From assembly GCA_902621165.1 (NCBI GenBank), contig CACNKX010000006.1:4852-68851 (forward strand): a DNA stretch of 64,000 nt, given 5' to 3'. The translations under genes and the position numbers were made by a program. Origin of the DNA: an uncultured Alphaproteobacteria bacterium. Lineage in GTDB: Bacteria > Pseudomonadota > Alphaproteobacteria > HIMB59 > GCA-002718135. The stretch's first letter is position 1, and each line of letters opens with the position of its first letter. The notes under the pieces are model-generated. The model had not been told where the DNA came from and made no database searches. It saw only the letters and a program-made list of their open reading frames with translations. Positions 5,704-58,383 of this stretch are shown one piece after another.

Positions 5704-5723
5704 AATGTTATATACAATTTTTA

Positions 5724-6091: not shown

Positions 6092-6138
6092 ATTAATATT
6101 ATAAATCAAAAAGAATTTTTCTCAATAGACACAAAAAA

Positions 6139-30433: not shown

Positions 30434-30469
30434 GAAAACTTTATATAGATATAATTGAAATAAAAACAA

Positions 30470-32074: not shown

Positions 32075-32075
32075 A

Positions 32076-33140: not shown

Positions 33141-33501
33141 TTGATTCTTGCAAGGTTATTTTAATTTTTTTTAAAGATTTGTAATCTTCAGAGAATTCAT
33201 TTCTTAGTCTATTCAAGATCTTATTGCAAATATCCTCTGCTAAAAACTCTGTTGAGGTAATTTTTCCCTTAAATTCATCAATCTCATCTAAATTTTGATA
33301 ATTATATATTTTAAGAATATCTTTTAAAGTCGTGGACACTATTCCTAAATCCATAATTATATTGTATTTATTAAGTTTATCAGTGAAAAATTCTGCATCT
33401 ACTAAATATGTAGCTCCATGCATATTTTGGGCTGGTCCAAATACTTCTCCAGGTAAAGAATGAGCTATTAGAATATTTTCTCTTACTTTTATCGAATACA
33501 T
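33103..33501 (-). CDS. 6-pyruvoyl-tetrahydropterin synthase (PTPS)/QueD-fold (T-fold) homologue lacking catalytic Cys and part of the Zn site
   Basis: IAHSLPGEVFGPAQNMHGATYLVDAEF aligns with PTPS/QueD AAHRL.....C...HGH.Y.V. The Cys position is Ala and HGH is HGA. Confidence 0.8.
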   Translation of the reverse strand: MYSIKVRENILIAHSLPGEVFGPAQNMHGATYLVDAEFFTDKLNKYNIIMDLGIVSTTLKDILKIYNYQNLDEIDEFKGKITSTEFLAEDICNKILNRLRNEFSEDYKSLKKIKITLQESNVAWASYEKEVI

Positions 33502-33503
33502 AA

Positions 33504-34463
33504 TTAATATTTAACTAGATGCATTACTGTATCCTTATTTTTAAGGATTTTATAGTAATCTTTTTCTAAATCAAAAAAATTACTTTCACTAGTAATTAAT
33601 TTTTCTAATTTTGAATTTTTTAAAGATTTAATTGCTAATTTTAATCTCCCCTCAAAATCATATTTATTTTTCATGTATTTTGGTATTTTAGATACCTGTG
33701 AGCTAATAATTTTTAATCTTTTAGAATGAAAATACCCACCTAAGGCAACTTCTCCTTTATTTTTACCAAACCAACTAGCTTCTACTATTTTTCCTTCGAT
33801 AGATAATTTTTCCATTAAAGAATTTAGAACTTTATAATTAGCTGTAGTGTTTATTGCTACATCTATTTTCTCAATCTTTCTTATATCAATAAAATTTAAT
33901 CCTAAATAGTTGGCAATTTTTCTTTTATTTTTATTATTATCAAAAACATAGACATTTTTATATCCATTAATTTTAAAAAAAAATGCAGTTAATAATCCTA
34001 CAGAGCCAAGTCCTACAATTAGAATTTTGTTATTACTTTTAGATTGTGCGTCCCAAAAGATATTAATTGCTGTTTCCATATTTGCAGTTAGAACATATTT
34101 TCTCAAATTTCCTTTTGGTAAAAAAATTAAATTTTGAATAGAAATTTCATATAAATCTTGATGAGGATAAAGACTAAATATTTTTTTATTTATATATTTC
34201 CTTGGACCATCGATAATATTCCCAACATTTATATAACCGTATTTTATAGGTAAATTAAAAGAACCCTCTTGAAAAGGGGCTTTCATTAATTCAAATTGAT
34301 CCTTACTTACGCTTTTAGATGAAACTAATTTTTCAGTTCCCTTGCTAATACCTGAGTAAATAGTTTTAACTAAAACTGTTTTGTTATTTTTATTGTAAAC
34401 AAGTTTTTTTTGATAAATTTTAGCTTGTTTTTTTTTATCAATCCATAAAGAATAAGATTTCAT
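33504..34463 (-). CDS. Medium-chain dehydrogenase/reductase (MDR)-family dehydrogenase, probably zinc-independent
   Basis: GroES-like N-terminus (VLVKTIYSGISKGTE, where the usual Zn-ligand Cys is Ser) and Rossmann motif ILIVGLGSVGLL. Confidence 0.7.
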   Translation of the reverse strand: MKSYSLWIDKKKQAKIYQKKLVYNKNNKTVLVKTIYSGISKGTEKLVSSKSVSKDQFELMKAPFQEGSFNLPIKYGYINVGNIIDGPRKYINKKIFSLYPHQDLYEISIQNLIFLPKGNLRKYVLTANMETAINIFWDAQSKSNNKILIVGLGSVGLLTAFFFKINGYKNVYVFDNNKNKRKIANYLGLNFIDIRKIEKIDVAINTTANYKVLNSLMEKLSIEGKIVEASWFGKNKGEVALGGYFHSKRLKIISSQVSKIPKYMKNKYDFEGRLKLAIKSLKNSKLEKLITSESNFFDLEKDYYKILKNKDTVMHLVKY

Positions 34464-36039: not shown

Positions 36040-36936
36040 TTAATTCAAATTATTTTCTACTAATACTTTTTTAACAGTTTCACCCATTACAGAAGGGTTT
36101 TTGGAAATTGTAACTCCACACTCTTTAAGAAGTTCTACTTTTTCTATTGCACTTTCACCATAAGCAGAAACAATTGCGCCAGCGTGCCCCATCACACGAC
36201 CTTTAGGTGCAGTTAGTCCTGCTATATACGCAATTACCGGTTTACTCATATTTTCTTTAGCAAATTGTCCAGCTTCAACTTCTTGTGGGCCACCTATTTC
36301 ACCTATCATTAAAACTGCAATAGTTTCATCATCATTTTCAAACTTTTCAATTATATCTCTAAAAGAACTTCCATTTATTGGATCGCCTCCTATACCCACA
36401 CTTGTTGAAACACCAATTTCTAAATCTTTAAGTTGTTGTGCAGCTTCATATCCCAAAGTGCCAGATCTACTAACTATTCCTATTTTACCTTCTTTGTAAA
36501 TATGACCAGGCATAATACCTAACATAGATTTACCAGGGCTAATTATTCCTGCACAATTCGGACCTACTAATCCCATTTTTTTATCTTTTGGATATCTTCT
36601 CATGTATCTTTTTATTTTAACCATATCATGAGAAGGAATACCGTCAGTAATAGCCACACACGTTTTAATACCTGCATCAGCAGCTTCCATTGCTGAGTCT
36701 GCTGCAAAGGCTGGTGGGACAAATAAAATTGATGTTGATGCTCCAGTTTGATCTACAGCTTCTTTAACAGTATTAAAAACAGGAAGATTTAAATGAGTCA
36801 TACCACCCTTTCCAGGTGTTACCCCGCCAACAACATTAGAACCATACTTAATCATTTCTTCAGCATGAAAACTTCCAATTTTACCAGTGAATCCTTGGAC
36901 TAAAATTTTTGTATTTTTGTGAATGATTATAGACAT
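36040..36936 (-). CDS. mtkB: Malate--CoA ligase (malate thiokinase) alpha subunit; succinyl-CoA ligase alpha is the alternative
   Basis: CoA-ligase alpha fold and phosphohistidine loop MGHAGAI. An RYMRRYPKDKK insertion and GIGGDPINGSSF resemble MtkB as I recall it. Operon with mcl. Confidence 0.65.
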   Translation of the reverse strand: MSIIIHKNTKILVQGFTGKIGSFHAEEMIKYGSNVVGGVTPGKGGMTHLNLPVFNTVKEAVDQTGASTSILFVPPAFAADSAMEAADAGIKTCVAITDGIPSHDMVKIKRYMRRYPKDKKMGLVGPNCAGIISPGKSMLGIMPGHIYKEGKIGIVSRSGTLGYEAAQQLKDLEIGVSTSVGIGGDPINGSSFRDIIEKFENDDETIAVLMIGEIGGPQEVEAGQFAKENMSKPVIAYIAGLTAPKGRVMGHAGAIVSAYGESAIEKVELLKECGVTISKNPSVMGETVKKVLVENNLN

Positions 36937-36938
36937 GA

Positions 36939-38099
36939 TTATCCAAGAGCCTTCACTGCTTTATTTGCTGCATCTTCTAAAGTTGATGCCTCAATGTAAT
37001 TAATATTGCTTTTTTTAAGTATTTCATTTCCCTTTTCGACGTTAGTTCCAGCTAAACGTATAACTAAAGGATGTTTAATTTCAATTTTTGATAAAGCTTG
37101 AACAATTCCTTCTGCAACCCAATCACATCTATTAATTCCTGCAAAGATATTAACTAATATTACCTTAACTTTTGTGTCCATAGAGATTAATTTAAACGCT
37201 TTAACTATTTTTTCAGGCGTTGCACCTCCGCCAACATCTAAAAAATTTGCAGGTTGACCACCAGCAAGTTTTATCATATCCATAGAAGCCATTGCTAAGC
37301 CTGCACCATTAATAATATTACCAATATTCCCATCTAAGCTTACATAATTCATTCCTCTGTCAGAAGCATAAACTTCATTTGAATTTTCTTGTGTTTTATC
37401 TCTAAGTTCTGCAATTTCGTCTCTTCTAAACATTGCATTATTATCAAAACTCATTTTACAATCTAATGCTAATATTTCATCTTGGTGTGATACAACTAAT
37501 GGGTTAACTTCAACCATTGTTGCATCAAGCTCACTAAAAGCTTTATAACAACCAATAATTGTATTTGCAGCTCTTGAGATCAATTTGGATTCAATTCCTA
37601 AACCAAAAGCTATTTCTCTTGCTTGAAATTGTTGAATACCAACTGCTACTTCTATTTTAGATCGTATAATTGTTTCAGGTTTTTCTTTTGAAATTTCTTC
37701 TACACTCATTCCACCTTCTGTTGAGGCTACAACCATTATACTTTCTGAAGATCTATCAAACACTAAACCTAAATATAATTCGTGTTTGATATCAGTTGCT
37801 TCTTCAATATAAATTCTATTTATTATCTTACCCCCTGGACCAGTTTGGTTTGTAATTAATTTTTTACCTAACAATTTATCAGTTGCATCAGCAACTTCTA
37901 ACGGAGAATTACATATTATAATTCCTCCCGCTTTACCTCTAGCACCTGAGTGAACTTGCGCTTTTACAACCCATTTTGAACCACCAATTTCTCTTGCTTT
38001 GTTTTCTGCATTTTCTGGACTATAAACAATACCACCAGTAGGAATTTTAACACCAAAATCAGACAATATTTTTTTTGCTTGATATTCGTGTATATCCAT
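36939..38099 (-). CDS. mtkA: Malate--CoA ligase beta subunit (ATP-grasp); succinyl-CoA ligase beta is the alternative
   Basis: MDIHEYQAK start. NIFAGINRCDWVAEG differs from NIFGGIVRCD in SucC, and VGIQQFQAREIAF is also present. Its ATG overlaps the mcl stop (TAATG). Confidence 0.65.
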   Translation of the reverse strand: MDIHEYQAKKILSDFGVKIPTGGIVYSPENAENKAREIGGSKWVVKAQVHSGARGKAGGIIICNSPLEVADATDKLLGKKLITNQTGPGGKIINRIYIEEATDIKHELYLGLVFDRSSESIMVVASTEGGMSVEEISKEKPETIIRSKIEVAVGIQQFQAREIAFGLGIESKLISRAANTIIGCYKAFSELDATMVEVNPLVVSHQDEILALDCKMSFDNNAMFRRDEIAELRDKTQENSNEVYASDRGMNYVSLDGNIGNIINGAGLAMASMDMIKLAGGQPANFLDVGGGATPEKIVKAFKLISMDTKVKVILVNIFAGINRCDWVAEGIVQALSKIEIKHPLVIRLAGTNVEKGNEILKKSNINYIEASTLEDAANKAVKALG

Positions 38100-39037
38100 T
38101 ACTTGCTCTCAATTAATTTATTTATATTTACAATATTTTCAGCCATTCTTGCAGATGCAGCGTCGATCATTCTTCCATCAAGCTGAGCAGCACCCTTTCC
38201 TTCAGTAGCTGCTTTTTCTAATTCTAATAATATTTTTTTTGCTTTATCTATTTCTTCTTTAGGTGGAGAAAAAACTTCATTAGCAAGATCTATTTGTGAT
38301 GGATGTATAGCCCATTTACCCTCAAAACCAATTGCTGCAGCTCTTTTTGCTGCATCAAGATATCCTTCTTTGTCATTAAAATCACCAAAAGGTCCGTCTA
38401 TTGCTCTTAAGCCATATGATCTACAAGTCATTACTAATGTTGATAAGCCATGATGCCATTGATCTCCAGGGTAATCAGGATTTAACCCACCTATAACAAC
38501 GGTTCTTGCGCGCATACTTGCTGCATAATCTGCAACTCCAAAATGTAATGCTTCTAGTCTTGAACTTGATGTTGCAATTGGTTGAATATTAGACATTCCT
38601 AGTGCTGTTTCAATTAAACATTCTAAACCTATTTTATTTTCAAATTTTTTATTTTGCTCAATTTGATTAAGCAAACAATCAACCATATATACATCAGATG
38701 ATGAGCCTACTTTTGGAATTAATAATGTATCAACCCTATCACCTACCTCTTCAATAATTTCAATTACATCACGGTACATATAGTGTGTATCCAAACCGTT
38801 AATTCTTATAGAGATTGTTTTACCTTCTTCTTTCCAATTATATTCTTTTATTGCATTAATAACATTTCTTCTTGCATCAATTTTATCATTTGGAGATACT
38901 GCATCTTCTAGGTCTAAGAAAATATAATCGGCATTTGATTTTAATGCTTTCTCAAACATCTTTGGATTAGAGCCAGGGACTGCCAACTCACTTCTGTGTA
39001 ATCTAGATTTAGCAGGTTTATAAAATAAATGGCTCAT
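38099..39037 (-). CDS. mcl: L-malyl-CoA / beta-methylmalyl-CoA lyase (HpcH/CitE-like)
   Basis: RLHRSELAVPGSNPKMFEKA, IFLDLEDAV, INGLDTHYMYRDV and GFEGKWAIHPSQIDLANEVF closely match Mcl of serine-cycle and ethylmalonyl-CoA organisms as I recall them. Confidence 0.85.
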   Translation of the reverse strand: MSHLFYKPAKSRLHRSELAVPGSNPKMFEKALKSNADYIFLDLEDAVSPNDKIDARRNVINAIKEYNWKEEGKTISIRINGLDTHYMYRDVIEIIEEVGDRVDTLLIPKVGSSSDVYMVDCLLNQIEQNKKFENKIGLECLIETALGMSNIQPIATSSSRLEALHFGVADYAASMRARTVVIGGLNPDYPGDQWHHGLSTLVMTCRSYGLRAIDGPFGDFNDKEGYLDAAKRAAAIGFEGKWAIHPSQIDLANEVFSPPKEEIDKAKKILLELEKAATEGKGAAQLDGRMIDAASARMAENIVNINKLIESK

Positions 39038-40244: not shown

Positions 40245-40844
40245 ATGTATATTTATGATTTTATCCAAGGATTAATAATTGGAGGAACATTAATTATAGC
40301 TATAGGACCGCAAAATTTATTTGTAATTCAACAAGGGCTTAAAAAATCTTATGTTTTTACGGTTACTTTATTTTGCAGTCTATCTGACAGTTTACTAATT
40401 GTAATTGGAATATATCTATCTAATTATATTGTTCAAATTAATCCAAGTATCATAGGAATAATAAAAGTATTAGGTGGAATTTGGCTTATATTTTATGGAT
40501 TAAATAAAGTTATAAAATTAAATCAAATAAAAGATATAAATAAAAAATTAAATATAATTAACGAATACGGAAAAGTATTAATTACCTTATTTCTTATTAC
40601 ATACGCAAATCCTCATGTTTATCTAGATACAATTATTTTGCTGGGATCATTATCAACAAATTTTAATGATCAATTTTCATTTGGCGTTGGAGCAATTTCA
40701 GCTAGTTTTTTGTTTTTCTTTTCTTTGGGATATATGTCGAAGTTTTTGTCAAAATATATTTATTCAAATAAAACTTGGTTTTGGATTGATCTAACCATTG
40801 GTCTGCTAATGATTAGTTATGGAATATATTTTATAATTTTTTAA
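40245..40844 (+). CDS. LysE/ArgO-family amino-acid exporter
   Basis: 199 aa, 6 TM helices. N-terminal GPQNLFVIQQG motif. Confidence 0.8.
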   Translation: MYIYDFIQGLIIGGTLIIAIGPQNLFVIQQGLKKSYVFTVTLFCSLSDSLLIVIGIYLSNYIVQINPSIIGIIKVLGGIWLIFYGLNKVIKLNQIKDINKKLNIINEYGKVLITLFLITYANPHVYLDTIILLGSLSTNFNDQFSFGVGAISASFLFFFSLGYMSKFLSKYIYSNKTWFWIDLTIGLLMISYGIYFIIF

Positions 40845-43800
40845 AGAAAGTTTCTAAGTTTTTACATACCTGATCAACATTTAATTTTGTAAATACAAGA
40901 GGTGGTTTTATTTTAATAACATTGTCATAAGGTCCATCAGTGCTCAATAAAATACCTTGATTTCTCATATAATTAATAAGCAGTTTAGCTAATTTTTTAT
41001 TTGGTTTAGATACATTACTATTCTGAATAATATCTATTCCTAAAAAAAGCCCCCTACCTCTAACTTCACTAATATATTTTTTATATTTAAGTTGGATTTT
41101 TTTTAATTCTTTTAAAAAATAATTACCAACTAACAAAGAATTTTTTTGTAATTTATTATTATCAATAGTCTCTAATACTGCTTTACCGATAGCACAGGAA
41201 ACAGGATTACCACCGAATGAGTTAAAATATTCCATCCCGTTATTAAAAGTTGAAGCAATTTTTTCTGTAGTTATAACAGCAGCTATAGGGTGACCATTGC
41301 CCATAGGTTTGCCCAATGTTACTATATCAGGAACAACATCATGCTCTTCAAATGACCAAAAATGTCTTCCAACGCGTCCAAAACCAGTTTGTACCTCGTC
41401 AACAATACATAATGCATTGTTTCTTCTAATTTCTGAAAATATTTCTTTTAAATAATTTTTTGGAAGAATTATTTGACCCCCGCAACCAAGTATACTTTCA
41501 GTAAAAAAACATGCAATATTAGTTTCTTTAATTTTATTTCTAATTACCGTTTTAGCTTCATCTATATATTTTTGAATCCAATTTGAATTTTGGTATCTCC
41601 ACTTACCTCTTATGGGATCAGGCATGTCTAATACATGAACATAATCTTTTTTACCCGAACCACCCTTACTATTAAATTTATATGGACTTAGATCAATTAA
41701 AGCATTGGTATGACCATGATAAGCATTGTCCATCACAAAGACATCTTTTGCATTAGTATAAGTTTGAGCTATTCTATAAGCTAAATCATTAGCTTCAGAT
41801 CCTGTACATACGAAAAATATCTTATTTAATTTTTTTGGAAACTTACTTAAAAGTAATTCACTATAATCGTTAATTGTATCGTATAGATATCTCGTATTAG
41901 TATTAAGTTTTAAATTTTGCTGAGTCATAGCTTCATGGACATAGGAATTTGAATGTCCAACATGGGAAATGTTATTTACACAATCTAAGTATCTCCTGCC
42001 ATATCTATCAAAAAAATACTGATCTTTAGCTTCAAGCATGTGAAGTGGTTTCTTGTAAGAAATTGATAAATTATCAGAAATATTTTTTCTTCTTTTTTTT
42101 AAAGTATCTTTAAAATTATTATTATTAGAATAAAAAGATTTTGGAATTCGTAGAATTAAATTTGGATCAGGTGAAATTTTATTCCAAATATTGAATAAAA
42201 ATTCTTCACCTACTCCTGGAAAATTCTTATCATGTCCTAATAAATCTAAAATAATTTGAAAATGTAAATGTGGTAACCATTTCCCATTTTCATTAGAATT
42301 ACCAATTTTACCAATCCATTCACCTTTCTTAATTTTTTTTCCAATTTTTAGTTTTTGAAAGATTATTTTAGATAAATGACCGTATAGAGTATAAAATTTA
42401 TATTTTTTAAAACTATGTTCTAAAACTAGAGTGGGGCCATAGTCATATTTAAAATTATTATTTTTTAAAATTATAATTTTACCATCTATTGGAGCAAATA
42501 AATCTGTTCCCTGATCAATAAAAATATCAATTCCTAAGTGAATATTACGTCTTTCATTCGTATTTAATTCAGAAATAAAGTTAGGTCCCTTATAAACTTT
42601 TCTTTTTTCATTGTATAAACCTATAGCTATACGAGAATTATCTTCTTTAAATATTTTATTAACTCTTTTCTTAAGTGTAATATTATCTGGGTTACCTTTT
42701 AATAAAGGTGAATCAGAACTTAATTTTAAGATAGATTTATTTTTATCAAGTAAATTAAATTTAAAAATATCACCAAAGTTGAATTTATTTATATAATTTA
42801 TAATTTCATTATGATGGTGAATAATATCAAAGCCGCATATTTCGCGAACAATATATATTAAAAAATTGATAGGAATTTTGTCTAATTTTTCTAATAAAGA
42901 CCATGCATCTTTCTCACTAATACTTAAATATTGATTTGATGGATATTTAATTCTTTGTTTTTTTGCCATTACAACAGTAATCATAAGTCTTGACTTACAT
43001 AATGATATTAATGAATTAATTTCATCCTCATTAATAGAAAACTGTTTATTGTACTCTGTTATTATATTTTTAAGTGTAAGATAAATATTATCATTATTCA
43101 TTAATGCATATGAAAGGCATATAGCTAAATCATTTATTGTTGGAGAATAAATAGAATCTCCATAATCTAGTAAACCACAAACATTGTTTTTTTTAATAAC
43201 AATATTATAATTATTTGGATCTGAATGAGTTATTGAATATCTTAGTTTATTTAAATTATTTTTTACAAATTTTTCATATTCTGAAAAACATTTTAATAAA
43301 ATTAATTTTTTTGAACCAGTAAAAATATTAATATCTTTTTTAATCCATTTTAAATTTGATGGATCCCAAATAAAATTTCTATGGGCATCTATATCGTTAA
43401 ATGTTTTCAACTTAGTTGATACTTTTCCAAGCAACTTACCTAAAGAATTTTCAATTTTATCGTTACTTTTTGTATCTCCATACATTCGCCCTTCAATAAA
43501 AGATAAGATCCTAACAAAGCATTCTCTATTTTTTTTATCTAAATATTTTACAATCTTTGTATGGTGTATTTTTGGTATAAAAGATTTAAGACTAAGATCA
43601 CTTCGTAAATAATTAATTAATCTATCTTGGTATTTTAATATATTTATTTTTTCTGATGGGTTTGAAATTTTTAATACATATTTTTTTTTATTATTTATTA
43701 ATATAATAAAATTTATATCCCTTTCACTATCAAGTTGTTTAATTTTGAGTAATTTATTTCTTAAGAAAGAAAAATTAATCTTTAACCATTTAATTAAATG

Positions 43801-43860
43801 TTTATTATCAATAATAGGTGGATCAACATCAAAAACTGACATAAAAGGTGTATAATTCAT
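40831..43860 (-). CDS. Tri-domain protein: APH/hydroxylysine-kinase-like phosphotransferase + M23 metallopeptidase-like domain + class III aminotransferase-fold phospho-lyase (AGXT2L/ETNPPL-like)
   Basis: Kinase: HSDPNNYN and LLDYGDS. M23: HLGIDI (HxxxD), YGHLS, HLHFQI (HxH). C-terminus: DEVQTGFGRVGRHFWSFE and TLGKPMGNGHPIA, very close to ethanolamine-phosphate / 5-phosphohydroxylysine phospho-lyases. Start uncertain (43881, 43860 or 43842). Confidence 0.8.
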   Translation of the reverse strand: MNYTPFMSVFDVDPPIIDNKHLIKWLKINFSFLRNKLLKIKQLDSERDINFIILINNKKKYVLKISNPSEKINILKYQDRLINYLRSDLSLKSFIPKIHHTKIVKYLDKKNRECFVRILSFIEGRMYGDTKSNDKIENSLGKLLGKVSTKLKTFNDIDAHRNFIWDPSNLKWIKKDINIFTGSKKLILLKCFSEYEKFVKNNLNKLRYSITHSDPNNYNIVIKKNNVCGLLDYGDSIYSPTINDLAICLSYALMNNDNIYLTLKNIITEYNKQFSINEDEINSLISLCKSRLMITVVMAKKQRIKYPSNQYLSISEKDAWSLLEKLDKIPINFLIYIVREICGFDIIHHHNEIINYINKFNFGDIFKFNLLDKNKSILKLSSDSPLLKGNPDNITLKKRVNKIFKEDNSRIAIGLYNEKRKVYKGPNFISELNTNERRNIHLGIDIFIDQGTDLFAPIDGKIIILKNNNFKYDYGPTLVLEHSFKKYKFYTLYGHLSKIIFQKLKIGKKIKKGEWIGKIGNSNENGKWLPHLHFQIILDLLGHDKNFPGVGEEFLFNIWNKISPDPNLILRIPKSFYSNNNNFKDTLKKRRKNISDNLSISYKKPLHMLEAKDQYFFDRYGRRYLDCVNNISHVGHSNSYVHEAMTQQNLKLNTNTRYLYDTINDYSELLLSKFPKKLNKIFFVCTGSEANDLAYRIAQTYTNAKDVFVMDNAYHGHTNALIDLSPYKFNSKGGSGKKDYVHVLDMPDPIRGKWRYQNSNWIQKYIDEAKTVIRNKIKETNIACFFTESILGCGGQIILPKNYLKEIFSEIRRNNALCIVDEVQTGFGRVGRHFWSFEEHDVVPDIVTLGKPMGNGHPIAAVITTEKIASTFNNGMEYFNSFGGNPVSCAIGKAVLETIDNNKLQKNSLLVGNYFLKELKKIQLKYKKYISEVRGRGLFLGIDIIQNSNVSKPNKKLAKLLINYMRNQGILLSTDGPYDNVIKIKPPLVFTKLNVDQVCKNLETFFKKL

Positions 43861-43861
43861 A

Positions 43862-44749
43862 ATGCTAAAATCTAAAAACATTTTTGTTTGTATTGGGGCA
43901 ATTCATCACGATTATTTATTAAATCTTAAAAAAAATATTATTAATTTTAGATCTAATCAAATTACACAAAAAAGCAGAATTGGTGGAGTGGCGTACAATA
44001 TTGCAGAATTGCTCTCGAATTTTGTTGATGTAAACTTTTATAGTTTAGCTATCAATGAAGAGATTAGAAAAAAAATCTCAAAAAAAATATATGTTCATCA
44101 AGTGAATAAAGATTATGCAGATAGGTACTATTTAGCTTTATTAGATAAAAATAATAAATTTTTATTAGGATTAGCTAACACAGATGAATATGAAAATAAC
44201 AAATCTTTAAAAATACCAAACATCAAGAATAAAAATATAATATTTGATCTAAATTTTTCTAAAACCTATTTGGAAAAATCAATAAATAAACTATCAAAAA
44301 AAAATAAAATTATAGTGTGCGCAACATCAGTGCATAAAGTTATTAAAATTAAAAGGATTATAAATAAAGTTGATTTTATATTCTTAAATAAAGCAGAGTT
44401 ACTTAAACTTACAAATTCTTCAAATATAATATTAGGTGTAAAAAAAATATTAAAACAAAATAAAAAAATAAAAATAATTACTACTAATTCCAAAAATAAT
44501 GTAATCTTTGGAAGTAATGAATTTATAAAAAAAATAAAACCCCCATCAATCAAAGTAGTAAACGAAAATGGAGCTGGAGACGCACTAGCAGCTATGATGC
44601 TGTATTTGTTCAGTATAAATGAAAAAATAAATTATATATTGAAAATTTCTGTAGCATGCGGGTCTTATTATGCTAGTGGTAAAAGTATAAAAACTAAGAG
44701 TGATTTTTTAAAAATTAAAAATCTTTCTAAGAGAGTGAGTGTACAATAG
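43862..44749 (+). CDS. psuK: PfkB-family carbohydrate/nucleoside kinase (pseudouridine kinase-like)
   Basis: Ribokinase-like fold and C-terminal NENGAGDAL motif. Directly upstream of psuG. Confidence 0.7.
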   Translation: MLKSKNIFVCIGAIHHDYLLNLKKNIINFRSNQITQKSRIGGVAYNIAELLSNFVDVNFYSLAINEEIRKKISKKIYVHQVNKDYADRYYLALLDKNNKFLLGLANTDEYENNKSLKIPNIKNKNIIFDLNFSKTYLEKSINKLSKKNKIIVCATSVHKVIKIKRIINKVDFIFLNKAELLKLTNSSNIILGVKKILKQNKKIKIITTNSKNNVIFGSNEFIKKIKPPSIKVVNENGAGDALAAMMLYLFSINEKINYILKISVACGSYYASGKSIKTKSDFLKIKNLSKRVSVQ

Positions 44750-50798: not shown

Positions 50799-52658
50799 AT
50801 GGCAGAAAAAACTAAAGAAAATTTAACATTTCAAGCTGAAGTCAGTAAGCTTTTAGATCTTGTTGCTAATTCTCTTTATAGCGAAAGAGAAATATTTTTA
50901 AGAGAATTAATATCTAATTCTGCAGATGCCTGCGAAAAATTAAGATATCAATCACTCTCCAAAAAAAATCTTCTTAAAGATGAAAAGGATTTAAAAATAA
51001 ATATCAGAGTTTCAAAAAAGAAAAAAATTATTGAAATTGAAGATAATGGAATTGGAATGTCTAAAAATGAACTTATTGATAATTTAGGAACTATAGCGAG
51101 ATCCGGTACTAGTAAATTTATTGAAGCAATGAAAAATAAAAAGAGTAATGATATTTCTGCAATTGGACAGTTTGGTGTTGGTTTTTATTCCTCATATATG
51201 GTTGCGGATAATGTTGAAGTGCTTTCTAAAGATGCTGAAAATGAAGAAACAAATCTTTGGTCTTCTAATGGAAAAGAAAATTATACTATTGAAGAAGCTA
51301 AAAAAGATAAACGTGGCACCTGTATAACTCTAAATATAAAGAAAGATGCTGATGAATTTTTAGATTCATTTCGTTTGAGATCAATTATAACAAAATACTC
51401 TAATTATATTCCTTTTCCAATTTATCTTAAAGATCTTGACGATAAAGAAAAAGAAGAAAAAATAAATGAAGGTAGTCCATTATGGCTAAAAGATAAAAAA
51501 GATATAAAAGAGGAAGACTATAAGCAATTTTATAATAATATTTCATTTAACTTTGATGATCCCTTAAAAACTATTCACTATAACGCTGAGGGTGTTATTA
51601 GCTATAAGGCTTTACTGTATTTTCCTACAAATCAACCTATGGATTTATTCAATGCTGATAGGAAAAATAAAATAAAACTATATGTTCAAAAAGTTTTTAT
51701 CACTGATGACTGCGAGGACATAATCCCTAATTGGTTAAGATTTATTCCTGGAGTAGTTGACTCACAAGATATTTCTCTCAATATAAGTAGAGAAATGCTT
51801 CAAAATAATCCTATTATTACAAAAATAAAAAAAGGTATTACAAATAAAATTTTAAGTGAAATTGATAGCTTAGCTAAGAAAGAAAAGGATAAATTTGAGA
51901 CATTTTGGAATAATTTTGGTCCTGTTCTAAAAGAAGGGTTATATGAGCATAATGATCATCATGAAAAAATCCTACCGTTACTAAGGTTTGAAAATTCTTT
52001 AAATGATAAAAAAATATCTCTTGAAGAGTACACCAAATTAATGGCTAAAGATCAAAAAGAAGTTTATTATTTTGCTAATACTGATAAGGATCATATTAAA
52101 AACTCCCCTCAATTAGAAGTTTTTACTGATAAAAAGATACCAGTTTTGTTTATGGTTGATGCAGTAGATGAGTTTTGGATACAAAATGTAAATAAATTTA
52201 AAGATTTAGAATTTAAATCAATAACAAAAGGTAAGGTTGATGTTTCGAAAGTTGGTGAAAAATCAAGTAAGAAAGATGAAAACAAAAAAGAAATAGATAG
52301 TAAAATCAATGATTTAATTAACATACTTAAAACAGAGCTTAAAGAAACAATATCTGATGTTATTGTATCTAACAGATTAACCAAAAGCCCAATCCTGCTT
52401 GTTGCTGAAGAAGCTGGGATGGATATAAATATGGAAAAACTGATGAAAATGCATAATCAAAAAACCCCTGTTTCAAAAAAGATACTTGAAATTAATCCAA
52501 ACCATCCAATGATTATAAATTTATCTCAAAATTTAACAAAAATTGACCATAAAAAAGTTTCAAATTTAATTTTAGATCAAGCTAATATATTAGATGGTAA
52601 CATTCTCTCAAATCCATCTGCTTACTTAGAAAATTTAACTGAAATTTTTATTAAGTAA
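50799..52658 (+). CDS. htpG: Molecular chaperone HtpG (Hsp90)
   Basis: 619 aa. LRELISNSADA, DNGIGM and GQFGVGFYS (GHKL ATPase). Confidence 0.97.
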   Translation: MAEKTKENLTFQAEVSKLLDLVANSLYSEREIFLRELISNSADACEKLRYQSLSKKNLLKDEKDLKINIRVSKKKKIIEIEDNGIGMSKNELIDNLGTIARSGTSKFIEAMKNKKSNDISAIGQFGVGFYSSYMVADNVEVLSKDAENEETNLWSSNGKENYTIEEAKKDKRGTCITLNIKKDADEFLDSFRLRSIITKYSNYIPFPIYLKDLDDKEKEEKINEGSPLWLKDKKDIKEEDYKQFYNNISFNFDDPLKTIHYNAEGVISYKALLYFPTNQPMDLFNADRKNKIKLYVQKVFITDDCEDIIPNWLRFIPGVVDSQDISLNISREMLQNNPIITKIKKGITNKILSEIDSLAKKEKDKFETFWNNFGPVLKEGLYEHNDHHEKILPLLRFENSLNDKKISLEEYTKLMAKDQKEVYYFANTDKDHIKNSPQLEVFTDKKIPVLFMVDAVDEFWIQNVNKFKDLEFKSITKGKVDVSKVGEKSSKKDENKKEIDSKINDLINILKTELKETISDVIVSNRLTKSPILLVAEEAGMDINMEKLMKMHNQKTPVSKKILEINPNHPMIINLSQNLTKIDHKKVSNLILDQANILDGNILSNPSAYLENLTEIFIK

Positions 52659-53589
52659 CTGAATTTATAATTTTATTATTATTAAAAAATTCAACAAACT
52701 GATTGGCGACCATTTCTGCTACAACTATTTGTGCTTCATCAGTAGAAGCAGCAATATGTGGAGTTAAAATTATATTATCTAAATTATAAAACCCACTTTT
52801 TTCTAAAGGCTCATTTTTAAAAACATCTAATGCAGCGCCTTTAATATCTTTTTTTTCTAGAGCATTTTTAAGATCATCTTCATCAACTAAGTTGCCTCTA
52901 GCGGTATTGATAATGATACAATTTTTTTTCATTAGTGATAGATGATTTTTATTCATAATCGGATTACCATCTTTATTGGGTTTACAGTGAAAAGAAATTA
53001 TATCTGAATCTTTAATAATCTCATCGATAGAACAGGAATTATATTCAGGATAGCTATCCTTGACTGTTTTAAAGTATGAAGAATATATTGAAACGTTCAT
53101 TCCTAATACATTAGATATTTCTGCAACTCTTTTGCCTACATTACCAAAACCTATGATACCAATTTTCTTGCCTTTAATTTCGTTTCCTTTTAATTTCTTT
53201 TTTTCCCAAAGACCCTTATGAGTTGTCTCATTGGCAATAGTAATTTTTCTTTGTAATGCAAAAATTAAACCAATTGTGTGTTCTGCTGTAGCATTCGTAT
53301 TGCCTCCTGGAGTATTCATTACGATAATGTTTTTATTTTTAGCAGCTTCGACATCAACATTATCTACTCCTGCTCCTGCTCTACCTATAATTTTTAAATT
53401 AGAAAGAGAATCAATTAAATCTTTACGCACTTTAGTTGCAGAACGAATGATTAAACCATCATAGTTATCAATTATTTTTTTTAATTCTTCAGGAGATAAG
53501 TTTGTTTTTGTATCAACTAAAATGTTATTTTTTATTAAAATTTCAGATGCAATATTATCTAGTGAATCTGATATTAGTACTTTAGGCAT
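52651..53589 (-). CDS. serA: D-3-phosphoglycerate dehydrogenase, short form without ACT/ASB regulatory domains
   Basis: D-2-hydroxyacid dehydrogenase motifs GRAGAGVDNVD, GIIGFGNVGKRVA, ARG.LVDE, LDVF..EP, TPHIAAST. 312 aa from MPKVLISD. 8-nt overlap with serC. Confidence 0.8.
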   Translation of the reverse strand: MPKVLISDSLDNIASEILIKNNILVDTKTNLSPEELKKIIDNYDGLIIRSATKVRKDLIDSLSNLKIIGRAGAGVDNVDVEAAKNKNIIVMNTPGGNTNATAEHTIGLIFALQRKITIANETTHKGLWEKKKLKGNEIKGKKIGIIGFGNVGKRVAEISNVLGMNVSIYSSYFKTVKDSYPEYNSCSIDEIIKDSDIISFHCKPNKDGNPIMNKNHLSLMKKNCIIINTARGNLVDEDDLKNALEKKDIKGAALDVFKNEPLEKSGFYNLDNIILTPHIAASTDEAQIVVAEMVANQFVEFFNNNKIINSVT

Positions 53590-54745
53590 GTTTAGATTTA
53601 ATTTCTGAATAAGCCCAATCAATCCAAGGTAAAACTAATTCTACATCTGAAGTTTGAACCGTTCCTCCAGCCCATATTCTAAAAGAAGGTGGTGCTTTGG
53701 GATATCCATTACAATCAAATCCAACATTATTTTCAGAGAGTAATTTACATATATCAGCCATTACAGCTCTTTGACCGCTTTCATCTTTATTTGTAAACCA
53801 ATCTTCGATAATTTTAAAAGTTATTCCAGTGTTTGAGATATAATTATCATCTTTAATTTCAGATAAAAAAGAGACCCAATCTCTCTCATTAATCCATTCT
53901 CTGATTTTTTGTAAAGAATTCTGGGATTTTGAAATTAATGAATCTAACCCTCCTTGAGAAGAGACCCAATTTAATGAATCAATAATATCTTCAACACATA
54001 TCATTGACGGTGTATTTATTGTGTTTCCTTCGAATATACCTTTTATTAATTTTTGGTTTTCAGCTAATCTAAATAATTTTGGTACTGGCCAACTAGGTGT
54101 AAAACTTTCTAATCTTTCAACAACGCGAGGAGAAATTGCTATCATTCCATGAGCAGCCTCTCCTCCAAGTATTTTTTGCCAAGACCAAGTTATAACATCG
54201 CATTTATTATAATCTATAGGCATACCAAAGATTGCCGAAGTAGCATCACAAATGGTTAGGCCTTTTCTGTCATCAGGTATCCAATCTCCATTTGGAACTT
54301 TGACACCAGATGTTGTTCCATTCCAAGTAAAAATAACATCATTATCAAAATTGACTTTACTTAGGTCAGGTAGTTTCCCATAATCTTCTTCATGAATATT
54401 TAAATTATCTAATTTTAATTCGCTGATTGCATCGATTACCCAATCTTTACCAAAATTTTCCCATGCAAGAATATCAACTCCCGTTTTACCTAATAGGCAC
54501 CACATAGCTGCTTCTAAAGCCCCAGTATTTGAACCAGGCATTATACCCAATAAATAATCATCAGGTAATTTTAGAATATCCTTTGATTTATCTATCGCTT
54601 CTTTTAATCTTGCTTTACATTCAATAGATCTATGTGATCTACCAGTTAAAGCATTACTCAAAACAGATATGTCCCAGCCTGGTCTTTTTGAGGTTGGACC
54701 ACTTGAAAAATTTGGATTGTTAGGTTTTGTATTAGGTTTATTCAT
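53582..54745 (-). CDS. serC: Phosphoserine aminotransferase
   Basis: N-terminal NFSSGPTSKRPGW and WSWQKILGGE (PLP Lys). Long-form SerC, as in alphaproteobacteria and archaea. Confidence 0.88.
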   Translation of the reverse strand: MNKPNTKPNNPNFSSGPTSKRPGWDISVLSNALTGRSHRSIECKARLKEAIDKSKDILKLPDDYLLGIMPGSNTGALEAAMWCLLGKTGVDILAWENFGKDWVIDAISELKLDNLNIHEEDYGKLPDLSKVNFDNDVIFTWNGTTSGVKVPNGDWIPDDRKGLTICDATSAIFGMPIDYNKCDVITWSWQKILGGEAAHGMIAISPRVVERLESFTPSWPVPKLFRLAENQKLIKGIFEGNTINTPSMICVEDIIDSLNWVSSQGGLDSLISKSQNSLQKIREWINERDWVSFLSEIKDDNYISNTGITFKIIEDWFTNKDESGQRAVMADICKLLSENNVGFDCNGYPKAPPSFRIWAGGTVQTSDVELVLPWIDWAYSEIKSKHA

Positions 54746-55956
54746 ATACTTTTATCAAACTCATAAACTACTAAGCCATCTAAAGGTTTTGGATCAAACC
54801 ATGTTGATTTAGGAGGCATAGTCAAATTTTTATTCGCGACTGTAATAACATCACTTATTGAAGATGGGAAGATAGAAAATGCCACACTGTCATTATTTTC
54901 ATCAACTTTTTTTTCTAAAGCTTCCAAACCATGACATCCGGCAATAAATCTTATTCTTTCATCATTATTAACATCAGATATATTTAAATGTTTTTTGAAA
55001 ATAAAATTATTTAAAATATTAATATCTAGCGTATCAACAAAATTATCAGTTTTTAATTCAGTTTTAAAATACAATGAATACCATTTTTTTTCATGATACA
55101 TTCCAAATTGTTTATTAGATTGAGGTTTGAATGGATTTTTTTCTTTTTTTATTTCGAAGTTTTCAGAAAGAATGTCTAAAAAATTTTCTTCACTCAAACC
55201 ATTTAAATCTTTAACAACTCTATTATAATCAAATATTTTAGCCTCATCACTTGGAAACGCCGCTATCATAAAATCTTCTTGTAAAATATTTTTATTATAA
55301 TTTAATTCACCAATAATTTTCATTGCACCCATTCTATGATGTCCATCAGCAATATAAAAATTATCTACCTGATTTATAAACAAAGAAGATAGCTTTTTGA
55401 TGAAAGATTCATCAGAGACACACCAAAGTTTATGAATAGATTTATCAAAACTTTCAAAATCATAATCTGGAGTATTTGATATTATAGAGGATAATAAATC
55501 TTTTATCTTATTGTTTTTTTTATATACCACATAAATAGGACCAATTTGTGTTTTTATATTTAACATTTGCTCTGCTCTTTCTCTCATCCTTGTTTCATAA
55601 ATTTTTTCATGCGCTTTAATTTTTTCATCTACGAAATCTGATATTTTAGAAAGAGATAAAAAACCTAGTTGAGTATGGCCTTTAAATTCAATTTGATAAA
55701 TGTAATAAAATAATTCTTTATCTTTTTTAATTACGTCATTTTCTTTCATTTCATTAAAATGTGATTTAGCTTCTAAGAGAGTATCTGCTTCTTTTAATTG
55801 CCCAACAGGATTCAAAATTTTTAAATAATTCCAATAATTATTTTTTTTAAATATTTCTATATTTTCAATACTTAAATGATCAGTAGAGGGAGCAATTAAA
55901 TTTTTTGCATCTTCGTTGTAAGGACGTGTTCCTTTAAAAGGTTTAATTTCAACCAT
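54742..55956 (-). CDS. DUF1015-family protein (function unknown)
   Basis: 404 aa with the conserved YIADGHHR motif. 4-nt overlap with serC. Confidence 0.8.
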   Translation of the reverse strand: MVEIKPFKGTRPYNEDAKNLIAPSTDHLSIENIEIFKKNNYWNYLKILNPVGQLKEADTLLEAKSHFNEMKENDVIKKDKELFYYIYQIEFKGHTQLGFLSLSKISDFVDEKIKAHEKIYETRMRERAEQMLNIKTQIGPIYVVYKKNNKIKDLLSSIISNTPDYDFESFDKSIHKLWCVSDESFIKKLSSLFINQVDNFYIADGHHRMGAMKIIGELNYNKNILQEDFMIAAFPSDEAKIFDYNRVVKDLNGLSEENFLDILSENFEIKKEKNPFKPQSNKQFGMYHEKKWYSLYFKTELKTDNFVDTLDINILNNFIFKKHLNISDVNNDERIRFIAGCHGLEALEKKVDENNDSVAFSIFPSSISDVITVANKNLTMPPKSTWFDPKPLDGLVVYEFDKSI

Positions 55957-56002
55957 AATAAAGAAACACCTTTAATTAAATAAAAAAAAATTTAAACTTA
56001 AA

Positions 56003-57367
56003 TTACGCTACTTCTGGTATTTGAGAAATAGATTTACCTATTCCATCATCATCAATAACATCATCAGCCATTGATCCATTTAGATAATCATCATAAGCTG
56101 ACATATCAAAATATCCATGGCCACATAAATTAAAGAGAATAGTTTTTGACTCGCCTTTTTCTTTACATTCTAAAGCTGCATCAATAGCACCTTTGATTGC
56201 ATGGTTTCCTTCTGGAGCAGGAATAATTCCTTCTTGTTTTGCAAAAGTTAAACCAGCTTCAAAACAATCTTTTTGACCGTAAGCCTTTGCTCTCATCAGA
56301 CCTAACTGATATAAGTGGCTTAAATGATAAGACATGCCATGGTATCTTAATCCACCAGAGTGATTAGCCGGCGGTAAGAAATCAGATCCAAGAGTATGCA
56401 TTTTAATTAATGGAGTCATTTTTGCCATATCACCATGATCATAAGCATACTTACCCTTAGTAAATGAAGGACATGATGCAGGCTCGCAACCAATTATATC
56501 AATTTTTTGACCACCTCTTAACTGTTGTCCTAAAAATGGAAACATTAATCCAGAAAGATTACTACCACCACCTGTACAGCCAACAATGATATCAGGATAA
56601 TCTCCAGCCATCTCCATTTGCATAATAGCTTCATTACCATTTATAGTTTGATGCATTAGAACGTGGCCTAAAACACTTCCAAGTGAGTATTTTGCTTTAC
56701 CTCCACTTTTAACAGTTGCTTCTATTGCTTCTGATATAGCTATTCCCAAACTACCAGGGTTATCAGGATTTTCTGATAATAACTTGTTACCGAAGTCGGT
56801 TAAATTAGATGGACTAGCGTGACAGTTAGCACCGAACGATTGCATCATTAATTTTCTGTAAGGTTTATGATCAAAACTAACCTTAACCATGAAAACTTCT
56901 ATATCTATACCAAAGATCTGACCTGCAAAAGCTAATGAACTTCCCCACTGACCTGCGCCCGTTTCAGTAAAAATTTTACTAATTCCTTCTTCTTTATTAA
57001 AAAATGCTTGCGGAACTGCAGTATTTGGTTTGTGACTTCCTGTAGGACTAACACCTTCATATTTGTAATAAATTTTAGCTGGTGTATCTAAAAACTTTTC
57101 TAACCTTCTTGCCCTAAATAAAGGAGAAGGTCTCCATTGTTTGTATACTTCTCTTACTGGTTCAGGAATTTCTATTTCTCTTTCGGTAGAAACTTCTTGC
57201 ATAATTAAACTCATTGGAAATAAAGGAGCAAAGTCATCAGGACCAGCTGGTTGTTTAGTTCCAGGGTGTAATGGTGGTGGTGGTGGACTTGGTAAGTCTG
57301 CATTAATATTATACCAAAACTTTGGTGCTTTATTTTCTTCAAGTAAGTATTTAATTGAGTCACTCAT
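56003..57367 (-). CDS. TrpB2-type (TrpB-like) PLP-dependent tryptophan synthase beta homologue
   Basis: 454 aa, longer than TrpB1. PTGSHKPNTA (PLP Lys), GCTGGGSN and an N-terminal extension typical of TrpB2. Confidence 0.85.
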   Translation of the reverse strand: MSDSIKYLLEENKAPKFWYNINADLPSPPPPPLHPGTKQPAGPDDFAPLFPMSLIMQEVSTEREIEIPEPVREVYKQWRPSPLFRARRLEKFLDTPAKIYYKYEGVSPTGSHKPNTAVPQAFFNKEEGISKIFTETGAGQWGSSLAFAGQIFGIDIEVFMVKVSFDHKPYRKLMMQSFGANCHASPSNLTDFGNKLLSENPDNPGSLGIAISEAIEATVKSGGKAKYSLGSVLGHVLMHQTINGNEAIMQMEMAGDYPDIIVGCTGGGSNLSGLMFPFLGQQLRGGQKIDIIGCEPASCPSFTKGKYAYDHGDMAKMTPLIKMHTLGSDFLPPANHSGGLRYHGMSYHLSHLYQLGLMRAKAYGQKDCFEAGLTFAKQEGIIPAPEGNHAIKGAIDAALECKEKGESKTILFNLCGHGYFDMSAYDDYLNGSMADDVIDDDGIGKSISQIPEVA

Positions 57368-57465: not shown

Positions 57466-58383
57466 TTATACGTTTTTTACGGATATTTTACTCATTGATT
57501 TTTTTTGACCCACAAATAGACCAATAAAAACTAAAATAATTCCAACTACAGAACTAAATACTATTTGCTCAGAAAGGAATATGAATCCCCAAATTAAAGC
57601 AAAAACAGGTATTAAATAGGCAACATAAGATAAAAAAACCGGACCAGATTGTTTAACTATATGATAACGCATATGAAATGCGATAGCTGTTGGAAAAACA
57701 CCTAAATAAATAATTGAAAATAAAGAAATATTATTAATATTATTTTCATAATTGATAAAATCATAAAATAAAAAAGGTAATGATATTATCGCTCCAAACA
57801 ATGTAGCAAAAGTTGTAATTGAAATAGGGCTTAATTTTTTTAATTTATTATAGGCTGCAATATTTGAAATCATGTAACCAAATGCAGCTATAATCACAAA
57901 TATTTTTGCTAAAGTACTAATGTAATTTTCATCTTGAAAATTAAATCTACTTATATCTAAAATAAAAATAATACCTACAAAACCTATTATAATTGATAAA
58001 AATTTTATCCAAGTAAATTTATCGTCTGAAGTTAAAACATGGGACATTAGTAATGTTATTAAGGGACCAACAGACATTAATAAACCTGCAGTGGAAGAAG
58101 GTATGTATTGTTCAGCCCAACTAATCAGATAGAATGGTAAAAAATTTCCTGTAATTCCAATAAAAGAGAGAATTATAACTAAATCAAGATTTAATTTAGG
58201 ATGTTTGTTGTAAGAATAATATAAAATAATTAAAAAAATAGAAGCAATAATTAATCTTAAAGAAGCGATGCTTGTGGGAGTAAAACTAGATAAACAGATT
58301 TTAATAACAAAAAAAGATGATCCCCAAATAGCAGCTAAAATTATAAGGAGTATTAAATTATTTGATACTAATTTGTTTAACAA
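57466..58383 (-). CDS. DMT-superfamily (EamA-like) transporter
   Basis: 305 aa, 10 TM helices. Confidence 0.8.
   Translation of the reverse strand: MLNKLVSNNLILLIILAAIWGSSFFVIKICLSSFTPTSIASLRLIIASIFLIILYYSYNKHPKLNLDLVIILSFIGITGNFLPFYLISWAEQYIPSSTAGLLMSVGPLITLLMSHVLTSDDKFTWIKFLSIIIGFVGIIFILDISRFNFQDENYISTLAKIFVIIAAFGYMISNIAAYNKLKKLSPISITTFATLFGAIISLPFLFYDFINYENNINNISLFSIIYLGVFPTAIAFHMRYHIVKQSGPVFLSYVAYLIPVFALIWGFIFLSEQIVFSSVVGIILVFIGLFVGQKKSMSKISVKNV

Follow-up and report, generated by a model that had tools for sequence, protein, structure and literature searches.

A trpB2-DUF1015-serC-serA gene cluster conserved in SAR11-like marine bacteria, with a possible link between phosphoserine metabolism and TrpB2

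Described relatives of the cluster and the identities of its four genes

Gene clusters in which DUF1015 accompanies serA and serC have been described in Clostridioides difficile, Clostridium botulinum and Bacteroides thetaiotaomicron, with no canonical serB nearby (10.1101/2024.10.14.618325, and Hofmann et al. 2018 as cited). In the GapMind preprint of 2026 (Price et al., 10.1101/2024.10.14.618325) the DUF1015 protein was named SerBK and presented as a functional replacement for SerB. The same authors reported that DUF1015 often adjoins serA and serC, that genomes with DUF1015 beside serA are mostly without serB, and that E. coli serB::kan is able to grow on minimal medium when it is given CBO1128, the family member of C. 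botulinum. They also found that the predicted SerBK structure resembles the serine kinase SbnI and that B. thetaiotaomicron BT1151 is required for growth with L-serine as nitrogen source, and they were undecided between a kinase running in reverse and some other activity. Here we describe a related locus, a four-gene cluster in the order trpB2-DUF1015-serC-serA at positions 52651-57367 of a 64-kb stretch of DNA from an uncultured alphaproteobacterium (64,000 nucleotides of contig CACNKX010000006.1, assembly GCA_902621165.1), the whole of which is referred to below as the window. Based on comparison with the described systems, DUF1015-serC-serA belongs to a type of complete serine module that is already known, and the linkage of trpB2 to it is what is new.

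The window cluster is like the Clostridium and Bacteroides clusters in having DUF1015 with serA and serC. It differs from them in its host, a streamlined marine alphaproteobacterium, in the order DUF1015-serC-serA, in its type-2 SerC, in the trpB2 gene attached upstream, and in the glycine riboswitch that stands before DUF1015 in many sister lineages. A second point of reference is the alphaproteobacterial operon whose core is usually serC-serA (Corbino et al. 2005, PMC1273637) and which has a serC leader RNA (RF00517). The window cluster shares with that operon the succession of serC and serA and the type-2 SerC, whereas here DUF1015 lies upstream of and overlaps serC, and SerA is short and without regulatory domains. 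No Rfam match to the RF00517 leader was found in the window or in the DUF1015-serC gaps of three related loci (L001, L087 and L088 in our numbering of homologous loci). The third point of reference is TrpB2 itself. TrpB2 enzymes prefer O-phospho-L-serine (OPS), as reported by Busch et al. (2014, Biochemistry 53:6078) according to its citation in PMC11917138 and as a sequence-only reading of this stretch had correctly stated, and the structure 4qys is an OPS complex of Sulfolobus TrpB2. Characterised trpB2 genes are found in trp operons or alone, and a survey from 2007 saw trpB2 in no conserved neighbourhood other than that of trp operons (PMC1854888), whereas the trpB2 gene studied here is linked to enzymes predicted to make OPS.

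The cluster comprises four open reading frames (ORFs) on the minus strand, and the coordinates and spacing proposed in the sequence-only reading were confirmed exactly from the ORF list and the sequence. The first gene, trpB2 (56003..57367, 454 residues), encodes a TrpB-like pyridoxal phosphate (PLP) enzyme of the long TrpB2 type. It is followed by an A/T-rich spacer of 46 nucleotides (55957..56002), the gene for the DUF1015 or SerBK-type protein (54742..55956, 404 residues), serC for a type-2 phosphoserine transaminase (53582..54745, 387 residues), and a gene for a short, type III-like D-3-phosphoglycerate dehydrogenase (52651..53589, 312 residues from ATG), which is called serA-like below where its family is at issue. 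The DUF1015 stop and the serC start overlap by 4 nucleotides (ATGA), and the serC stop and the serA start by 8 nucleotides (ATGCCTAA). An alternative TTG start at 53622 would give a SerA of 323 residues; the genes called in relatives use the ATG and have the same 8-nucleotide overlap.

The 46-nucleotide spacer carries a Shine-Dalgarno-like AAAGGTG 11 nucleotides ahead of the DUF1015 ATG. An internal terminator in this gap, named in the sequence-only reading as something that could divide the cluster, was found neither by a pattern scan for terminator-like hairpins nor by folding (z-score -0.44), and no structured RNA was found in the spacer in Rfam at E<=1. In the window the four genes thus lie on one strand, are separated by short or overlapping junctions and have no terminator seen between them, as is expected of an operon. 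Because the gap is only 46 nucleotides and holds no visible terminator, the four genes are probably read through as one transcript in the window lineage.

The gene identities given in the sequence-only reading were borne out by profile searches, with matches above curated cut-offs for TrpB2, DUF1015 and SerC and with SerA as the best-fitting family for the fourth protein. These matches are strong and are not those of chance ORFs. TrpB2 scored 701 bits with NF009057 (cut-off 366) and 608 bits with TIGR01415 (cut-off 519), and just 133 bits with the TrpB1 model TIGR00263 (cut-off 392). Compared with solved structures, it matched those of Sulfolobus TrpB2 at 458 bits (6hul_B, aligned across residues 10-429), 389 bits (4qys_B) and 388 bits (6hte_B), against approximately 117 bits for TrpB1 structures. 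The PLP lysine (K113, in GSHKPN) and the glutamate of the ETGAGQ motif (E135, in TETGAGQWG) are both retained; in distant TrpB-like proteins the residue that corresponds to this indole-activating glutamate varies. The window protein therefore resembles the characterised TrpB2 enzymes in its length and sequence type, which exceeds the cut-offs of both TIGR01415 and NF009057, in its PLP lysine and in its match of 389-458 bits to the Sulfolobus structures. Family enzymology, together with the conserved linkage described below, suggests that it would use OPS.

The DUF1015 protein scored 228 bits with PF06245 (cut-off 25.8) over model positions 1-323 of 325 and had an additional weak match to DndB (ParB/Srx-like). 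Neither the single sequence nor a 12-sequence profile linked it to any solved structure. An AlphaFold2 model built on 43 homologues (predicted local distance difference test 80.8, predicted template-modelling score 0.81) was compared with the PDB using Foldseek and gave nine significant matches (E 1e-6 to 2e-5), all of which were to free serine kinases: SbnI (5uje, E 9.9e-7; 6nr6; 5ujd), SerK of Thermococcus kodakarensis (5x0b, 5x0e, 5x0g, 5x0j and 5x0k) and a Pyrococcus protein (1vk1). The next match had E>0.1. Template-modelling scores to SbnI and SerK were 0.33-0.38 relative to the query and 0.50-0.59 relative to the target. The ParB/Srx-like fold is thus common to the window protein and to the free serine kinases SbnI of Staphylococcus and SerK (PMC5120207). 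In the family alignment the motif DGHHR (residues 204-208) is invariant and is located where the SbnI/SerK fold has its nucleotide-binding motif; a C-terminal MPPKSTWFDPKP motif is conserved. The window protein differs from SbnI and SerK in being approximately 160 residues longer and in having no detectable sequence similarity to them, and its kinase activity is predicted. The likeness to the tested Clostridium and Bacteroides proteins is one of family and of predicted fold, which resembles that of SbnI and SerK.

Based on this model, the window DUF1015 protein is predicted to be a free-serine-kinase-like enzyme that interconverts OPS and serine in place of SerB. A scan of the 59 window ORFs brought up no canonical serB and neither trpA nor trpB1. 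The sequence-only reading had stated that no SerB is present here, which stands for the canonical enzyme and is otherwise superseded, because DUF1015 is a described SerB substitute (the rescue by CBO1128 and the serine-kinase fold both bear on this). Nor is its description of DUF1015 as a protein of unknown function still current, since the family has been described as SerBK and the model of the window protein shows the serine-kinase-like fold as well.

For SerC the profile matches were 585 bits with NF002841 (cut-off 477) and 521 bits with TIGR01365 (cut-off 448). The serA-like product is a two-domain D-2-hydroxyacid dehydrogenase (PF00389, 126 bits; PF02826, 185 bits). Its best family is phosphoglycerate dehydrogenase, with 324 bits over positions 1-308 of the 525 of TIGR01327 and 240 bits with another model of that enzyme, while the next best family outside it, glyoxylate reductase, gave 208 bits. 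We have filed it as a SerA-like short form on the basis of this rank and of synteny.

Conservation of the trpB2 linkage and a riboswitch between trpB2 and DUF1015

The same gene order was found in the single-cell genome AG-453-C10 (L003), whose TrpB2 is 100% identical to that of the window, and in AG-337-F02 (L004), whose TrpB2 is 99% identical. Homologues of the cluster are labelled Pelagibacteraceae or Pelagibacterales, which, with the identical TrpB2 and order in AG-453-C10, bears out the earlier view of the host as SAR11-like and places the window in an uncultured lineage of Pelagibacterales. Among the sources of these homologues, no cultured SAR11 strain was named and no contig exceeded 301 kb. 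The cluster's proteins sit in clusters of hundreds to approximately two thousand ocean-metagenome member sequences, and on account of these numbers the carrier lineages are considered abundant.

Across Pelagibacterales the order trpB2-DUF1015-serC-serA was found in at least four unrelated flanking contexts. In the first, the cluster lies between genes for EamA and HtpG (window, L003, L004 and L090-L093). In the second it has aldolase-SDR upstream (L001), in the third purL/GATase upstream and an MFS gene downstream (L083-L086), and in the fourth a sulfatase gene upstream and asparaginase/IF-2B downstream (L087-L089). Identity across the four contexts was 70-100% for TrpB2 and 41-99% for DUF1015, and the 8-nucleotide serC/serA overlap was present in every complete example, among them L001, L086-L090 and L093. 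A metagenome scan anchored on DUF1015 yielded 68 loci, in which the position of TrpB2 could be assessed in 54 and that of SerC in 45; TrpB2 lay directly upstream in 39 of the 54, and SerC followed DUF1015 in 44 of the 45. The persistence of the linkage through at least four contexts, with DUF1015 down to 41% identity, argues that it is under selection.

The spacer between trpB2 and DUF1015 is not the same in all lineages. In sister lineages with EamA/HtpG synteny and a TrpB2 82-90% identical to that of the window, it measures 186-195 nucleotides, compared with 46 nucleotides in the window. This longer spacer contains a glycine riboswitch aptamer (RF00504), which scored 70.4 bits (E 2e-12) in L090-L092 (L090:9869-9953, L091:6368-6452 and L092:3871-3955) and 60-66 bits in L097 (1217-1302), L102 (961-1047) and L106 (3371-3455). 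Downstream of the aptamer is a conserved covarying hairpin, CUGAAGAUU...AAUCAACAG, which can be aligned to the opening portion of a second aptamer. In four further loci (L135, L137, L140 and L149) the alignment shows a tandem-like second aptamer, where Rfam reports the first alone (38-59 bits), and the spacer is 235 nucleotides where it could be measured (L135 and L137). The window spacer had no Rfam riboswitch match at the gathering score or at E<=1, and a few other lineages also have none; judged from this distribution, the window lineage would either have lost the riboswitch or never had it.

The same position is therefore occupied in three ways: by a tandem-like two-aptamer arrangement (L135, L137, L140 and L149), by a single aptamer with the covarying hairpin (L090-L108), or by no riboswitch at all (window, 55957-56002). 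Placed side by side, these states look like a natural series of riboswitch decay, in which the hairpin looks like a remnant of the second aptamer. The family COG4198 probably corresponds to DUF1015. Single-aptamer glycine riboswitches have been reported upstream of COG4198 and of serC in marine metagenomes, on fragments that were assigned to Firmicutes (Kazanov et al. 2007, PMC2211319). Singlet glycine riboswitches that retain a vestigial second aptamer are likewise a known type. The sister SAR11 lineages resemble that report in having a single aptamer directly upstream of a DUF1015-type gene, whereas the window has none.

Based on the position of the aptamer, the DUF1015-serC-serA trio would be a glycine-responsive unit in the sister lineages, with trpB2 outside it. 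A single four-gene regulon is then unlikely to be ancestral, because the riboswitch separates trpB2 from the trio. The proposal in the sequence-only reading that the four genes form one operon fits the strand, the junctions and the lack of a visible terminator in the window, but is doubtful as a statement about a regulatory unit, given the sister lineages in which the riboswitch lies between trpB2 and DUF1015.

We also sought the sign of this riboswitch in the sister lineages. No terminator and no covarying anti-Shine-Dalgarno helix was found in them, and minimum-free-energy folding was uninformative. A strand swap between P1 and the ribosome-binding site was rejected as a mechanism, as it is not maintained where P1 varies. 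A crude folding of constrained ensembles gave a mean unpaired probability of the ribosome-binding region of 0.61 when P1 was enforced and 0.51 when it was blocked, the former being higher in 13 of 18 sequences, and leans weakly towards a glycine-ON switch.

Two further observations concern these intergenic regions. In one contig of 0.36 GC (L160:1-1934), the riboswitch and the start of DUF1015 are preceded by the last few trpB2 codons and then by divergent sequence, which may reflect a chimeric assembly. In lineages whose TrpB2 is 70% identical to that of the window, the gap between DUF1015 and serC measures 110-150 nucleotides, is A/T-rich and includes a shared AAAAAATATATATAAAAAAAA (L001:12647-12796, L087:10597-10711 and L088:10640-10750). 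These three gaps had no Rfam match; they may hold a promoter internal to the cluster or a regulatory element of another kind.

A proposed reversible phosphoserine/serine module and competing explanations

The reading that we favor, with more confidence than doubt but not by far, is that the cluster is a reversible phosphoserine/serine module whose OPS also feeds an OPS-dependent TrpB2. In it, SerA would oxidize 3-phosphoglycerate and the type-2 SerC would transaminate the product to OPS, two steps for which the family assignments are strong. DUF1015, replacing SerB, would link OPS to serine, so that the module could either make or consume serine; this step is suggested by the complementation obtained with a homologue and by the fold. 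TrpB2 would use indole and OPS of this pool to form tryptophan, with release of phosphate. In the sister lineages the glycine riboswitch would govern the trio, and in the window the four genes would probably be read together. The sequence-only reading had proposed a phosphoserine-centered module, and in this it was right; the link to trpB2 is real and conserved in SAR11.

Several points weigh against this reading. The serA-like protein misses the equivalog cut-off of TIGR01327 (324 versus 454 bits), because the ASB and ACT regulatory domains that make up the C-terminal half of the model are absent from it. The search for canonical serB, trpA and trpB1 covered the window, and any of them may be encoded elsewhere in the genome. 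For the proposed conversion of OPS to serine by DUF1015, a kinase running backwards would be thermodynamically unfavorable, as the SerBK authors themselves pointed out (10.1101/2024.10.14.618325). In the sister lineages, the riboswitch and the conserved sequence between trpB2 and DUF1015 speak for regulation of the trio as a unit of its own. A related lineage (group D, GC 0.31-0.35) has the trio without trpB2. Lastly, a genome scan with a 10-sequence TrpB2 alignment returned at least 80 loci, a sample and not a census, three of which (L003-L005) belong to the window's own lineage. Among the matches listed, 76 of the 77 from other species, with TrpB2 56-67% identical to that of the window, had no DUF1015 beside TrpB2. 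As these species lack serine-pathway neighbors of TrpB2, the role of this enzyme usually needs no such linkage.

The order of the four genes, for which conservation in other phyla had also been envisaged, is thus conserved across Pelagibacterales, in at least four contexts, and not beyond them, where a single case was seen among the 77 matches listed. That case, L018, is a marine alphaproteobacterial contig outside SAR11 (GC 0.48) with trpB2 followed by DUF1015. No second conserved TrpB2 neighborhood was found in other phyla, as no Pfam family occurred more than three times among the 131 immediate neighbors in L006-L082. This agrees with the earlier survey, in which trpB2 had no conserved neighborhood apart from trp operons (PMC1854888). 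Families that occurred at three of these loci each, which are small numbers, include class-I Trp/Tyr tRNA synthetases and hydrolases of the HAD type, to whose superfamily SerB belongs. Where the trio occurs without trpB2 (L126:2766-7898, and also L127, L130 and L134), it lies between lipB-like and radical-SAM (lipA-like) genes. The link thus vanishes outside Pelagibacterales, and one lineage has the trio alone; on the evidence of gene order, the trio is therefore the core, to which trpB2 was added in SAR11 specifically and has been kept through many rearrangements.

The best of the competing explanations concerns direction and is not exclusive of the reversible module. It is that the trio runs in the assimilatory direction: GlyA would convert glycine to serine, DUF1015 would act as a kinase and form OPS, and SerC and SerA would run in reverse to give 3-phosphoglycerate for gluconeogenesis. 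We regard this as possible, though clearly less probable than the reading above. With the same reserve, TrpB2 could be using OPS made by the kinase, in which case the cluster would not confer serine or glycine prototrophy but would be a glycine-induced entry route for carbon and nitrogen. SAR11 produces much glycine from methylated compounds, and the DUF1015 fold matches free serine kinases only, both of which fit this direction. The presence of a glycine riboswitch before the trio in many sister lineages and the weak lean of the folding test towards glycine-ON also fit. So do the need for BT1151 on L-serine nitrogen and the favorable thermodynamics of the kinase direction (10.1101/2024.10.14.618325). 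However, the ON/OFF call is itself weak, given that neither a terminator nor a covarying anti-Shine-Dalgarno helix accompanies it, and the rescue of E. coli serine auxotrophy by CBO1128 shows that the biosynthetic direction works in vivo. Moreover, a short SerA without ACT would depend for its feedback repression on just this kind of riboswitch, a logic that runs the other way, and the window lineage is without the riboswitch.

A second explanation, which we consider rather unlikely, is that the adjacency of trpB2 has no meaning. The trio would then be an ordinary serine operon, and trpB2 an independently transcribed indole-salvage gene that landed beside it in a SAR11 ancestor and has been carried along. 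The lack of serine-pathway genes beside TrpB2 in nearly all of the listed matches from other species, the earlier survey, the lineage that has the trio without trpB2, and the riboswitch and probable promoter region that in sister lineages separate trpB2 from the trio are all as expected from such an origin. Against it stands the retention of the four genes together through at least four contexts while DUF1015 falls to 41% identity, in a group in which gene order is otherwise reported to be poorly conserved (Pelagibacter; preprint 10.64898/2026.04.03.716430). In addition, L018, which is not SAR11, also has trpB2 followed by DUF1015, and the neighboring genes would make precisely the substrate that TrpB2 is published to prefer.

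The sequence-only reading had taken a different course, in which phosphoserine is channelled directly into a beta-replacement reaction. In the strict form of this view, with no phosphatase, all OPS would pass to TrpB2 to give tryptophan or another beta-substituted alanine, and DUF1015 would be an accessory. The lack of a canonical SerB among the window ORFs, the OPS preference published for TrpB2 (in the citation noted above) and the tight packing of the genes are in its favor. This proposal does not hold up well and we now consider it improbable, as the trio forms a complete serine module in which DUF1015 replaces SerB. DUF1015 homologues replace SerB and co-occur with serA and serC in many bacteria without an adjoining TrpB2, the trio itself occurs without trpB2, and its riboswitch senses glycine and not tryptophan or indole. 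The demand for tryptophan would also, we infer, be far too small to warrant a dedicated three-enzyme supply of OPS. Least probable of all is that TrpB2 is not a tryptophan synthase here but a PLP-dependent converter of OPS to serine (phosphate out and water in, as in threonine synthase), an OPS sulfhydrylase or another beta-replacement enzyme, with DUF1015 as the kinase of the opposite direction; this would remove the thermodynamic problem of SerBK, the aminoacrylate intermediate of TrpB can in principle be hydrated, and the residue equivalent to the indole-activating glutamate is variable in distant TrpB-like proteins, but the window TrpB2 keeps E135 and is 56-67% identical to TrpB2 of bacteria without a serine linkage, DUF1015 alone is enough for serB complementation, and most DUF1015-serA clusters in other phyla are without TrpB2.

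Surrounding genes and the biology of SAR11

The reversible module as we read it consists of the four genes only. Upstream of trpB2, at a distance of 98 nucleotides, is a gene for an EamA/DMT-family transporter on the same strand (57466..58383, minus), whose family matches are weak: 83 bits with TIGR00950, which is below the cut-off, and weak matches to YddG (aromatic amino acids), O-acetylserine/cysteine and EamA exporters. Its position ahead of trpB2 is kept in the lineages with the HtpG-side synteny, among them L003, L004 and L090-L093, and the gene also precedes trpB2 at many metagenome loci. We considered it as a core member of the cluster and rejected it, since only one of the four flanking contexts has it and the other three (L001, L083-L086 and L087-L089) do not. 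The downstream boundary of the cluster is formed by the convergent htpG gene (Hsp90; 50799..52658, plus strand), taken from the ORF list and with an HSP90 Pfam match on the syntenic gene in L090 and L093. The 3' ends of htpG and serA overlap by 8 nucleotides.

Three other regions of the window may be mentioned. Approximately 14 kb from the serine cluster, three adjacent minus-strand genes (36040-39037) encode the beta subunit of a malate--CoA ligase (NF010647, 620 bits, cut-off 604), a succinate/malate-CoA ligase alpha subunit and a citE/malyl-CoA-lyase-like protein. Judged by these assignments, their products could together convert malate to glyoxylate, a precursor of glycine. A minus-strand gene at 40831-43881 encodes a fusion protein of 1016 residues (PRK06148, 1020 bits, just under the cut-off) with a class-III aminotransferase as its C-terminal half and an uncharacterised N-terminal half; a gene for a LysE/ArgO-type exporter adjoins it (40245-40844). 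Two stretches, 4001-7233 and 30001-34000, have a very low GC content of 0.19-0.22, and a tRNA gene (3017-3103) lies beside the first of them. The ORFs at 4060-5703, 6139-7233, 31286-33140 and 33504-34463 had no NCBIfam match at E<=1e-25, and the low-GC region may be a variable island.

Cultured SAR11 strains of subclade I need glycine or serine. The serABC genes and prototrophy have been reported for subclade IIIa and for some metagenome-assembled or single-amplified genomes of subclades I and II (PMC10030771), so the glycine/serine dependence that the sequence-only reading had brought up is relevant to this locus, although exceptions to it were already partly known. In a table of 2016, most isolates have serA and not serC or serB, and cultured SAR11 other than HIMB114 lack serB (PMC5069961). 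Of 135 complete Pelagibacter genomes in a 2026 preprint that used KEGG orthologues, 129 were scored as having no serine pathway or an incomplete one. DUF1015 was not counted in these surveys of the SAR11 serine pathway, and type-2 SerC is not always recognized by those of the KEGG style. The conserved cluster suggests that the lineages which carry it are not dependent on serine or glycine in the way that has been assumed.

A bolder extension, which we put forward tentatively and hold to be less likely than the reversible module itself, is that in most surface SAR11 the synthesis of tryptophan from indole is wired to OPS, TrpB2 having been recruited beside a glycine-sensing module without SerB, and that many uncultured SAR11 make serine, or phosphorylate and assimilate it, despite being scored as auxotrophs. 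[quoted passage not shown] The physiological role of TrpB2 has been a question since approximately 2002, and a conserved neighborhood that would make its preferred in vitro substrate gives it a concrete context. If the linkage works as we propose, it would be the first natural genomic coupling to explain the phosphoserine preference of TrpB2. The sign of the riboswitch in the sister lineages would show the direction of the pathway, with glycine-ON pointing to assimilation and glycine-OFF to biosynthesis, and the riboswitch locus is in its own right a natural series for the study of riboswitch decay. The cluster thereby opens three questions to experiment: what role TrpB2 has, in which direction SerBK works, and how far SAR11 depends on serine or glycine.

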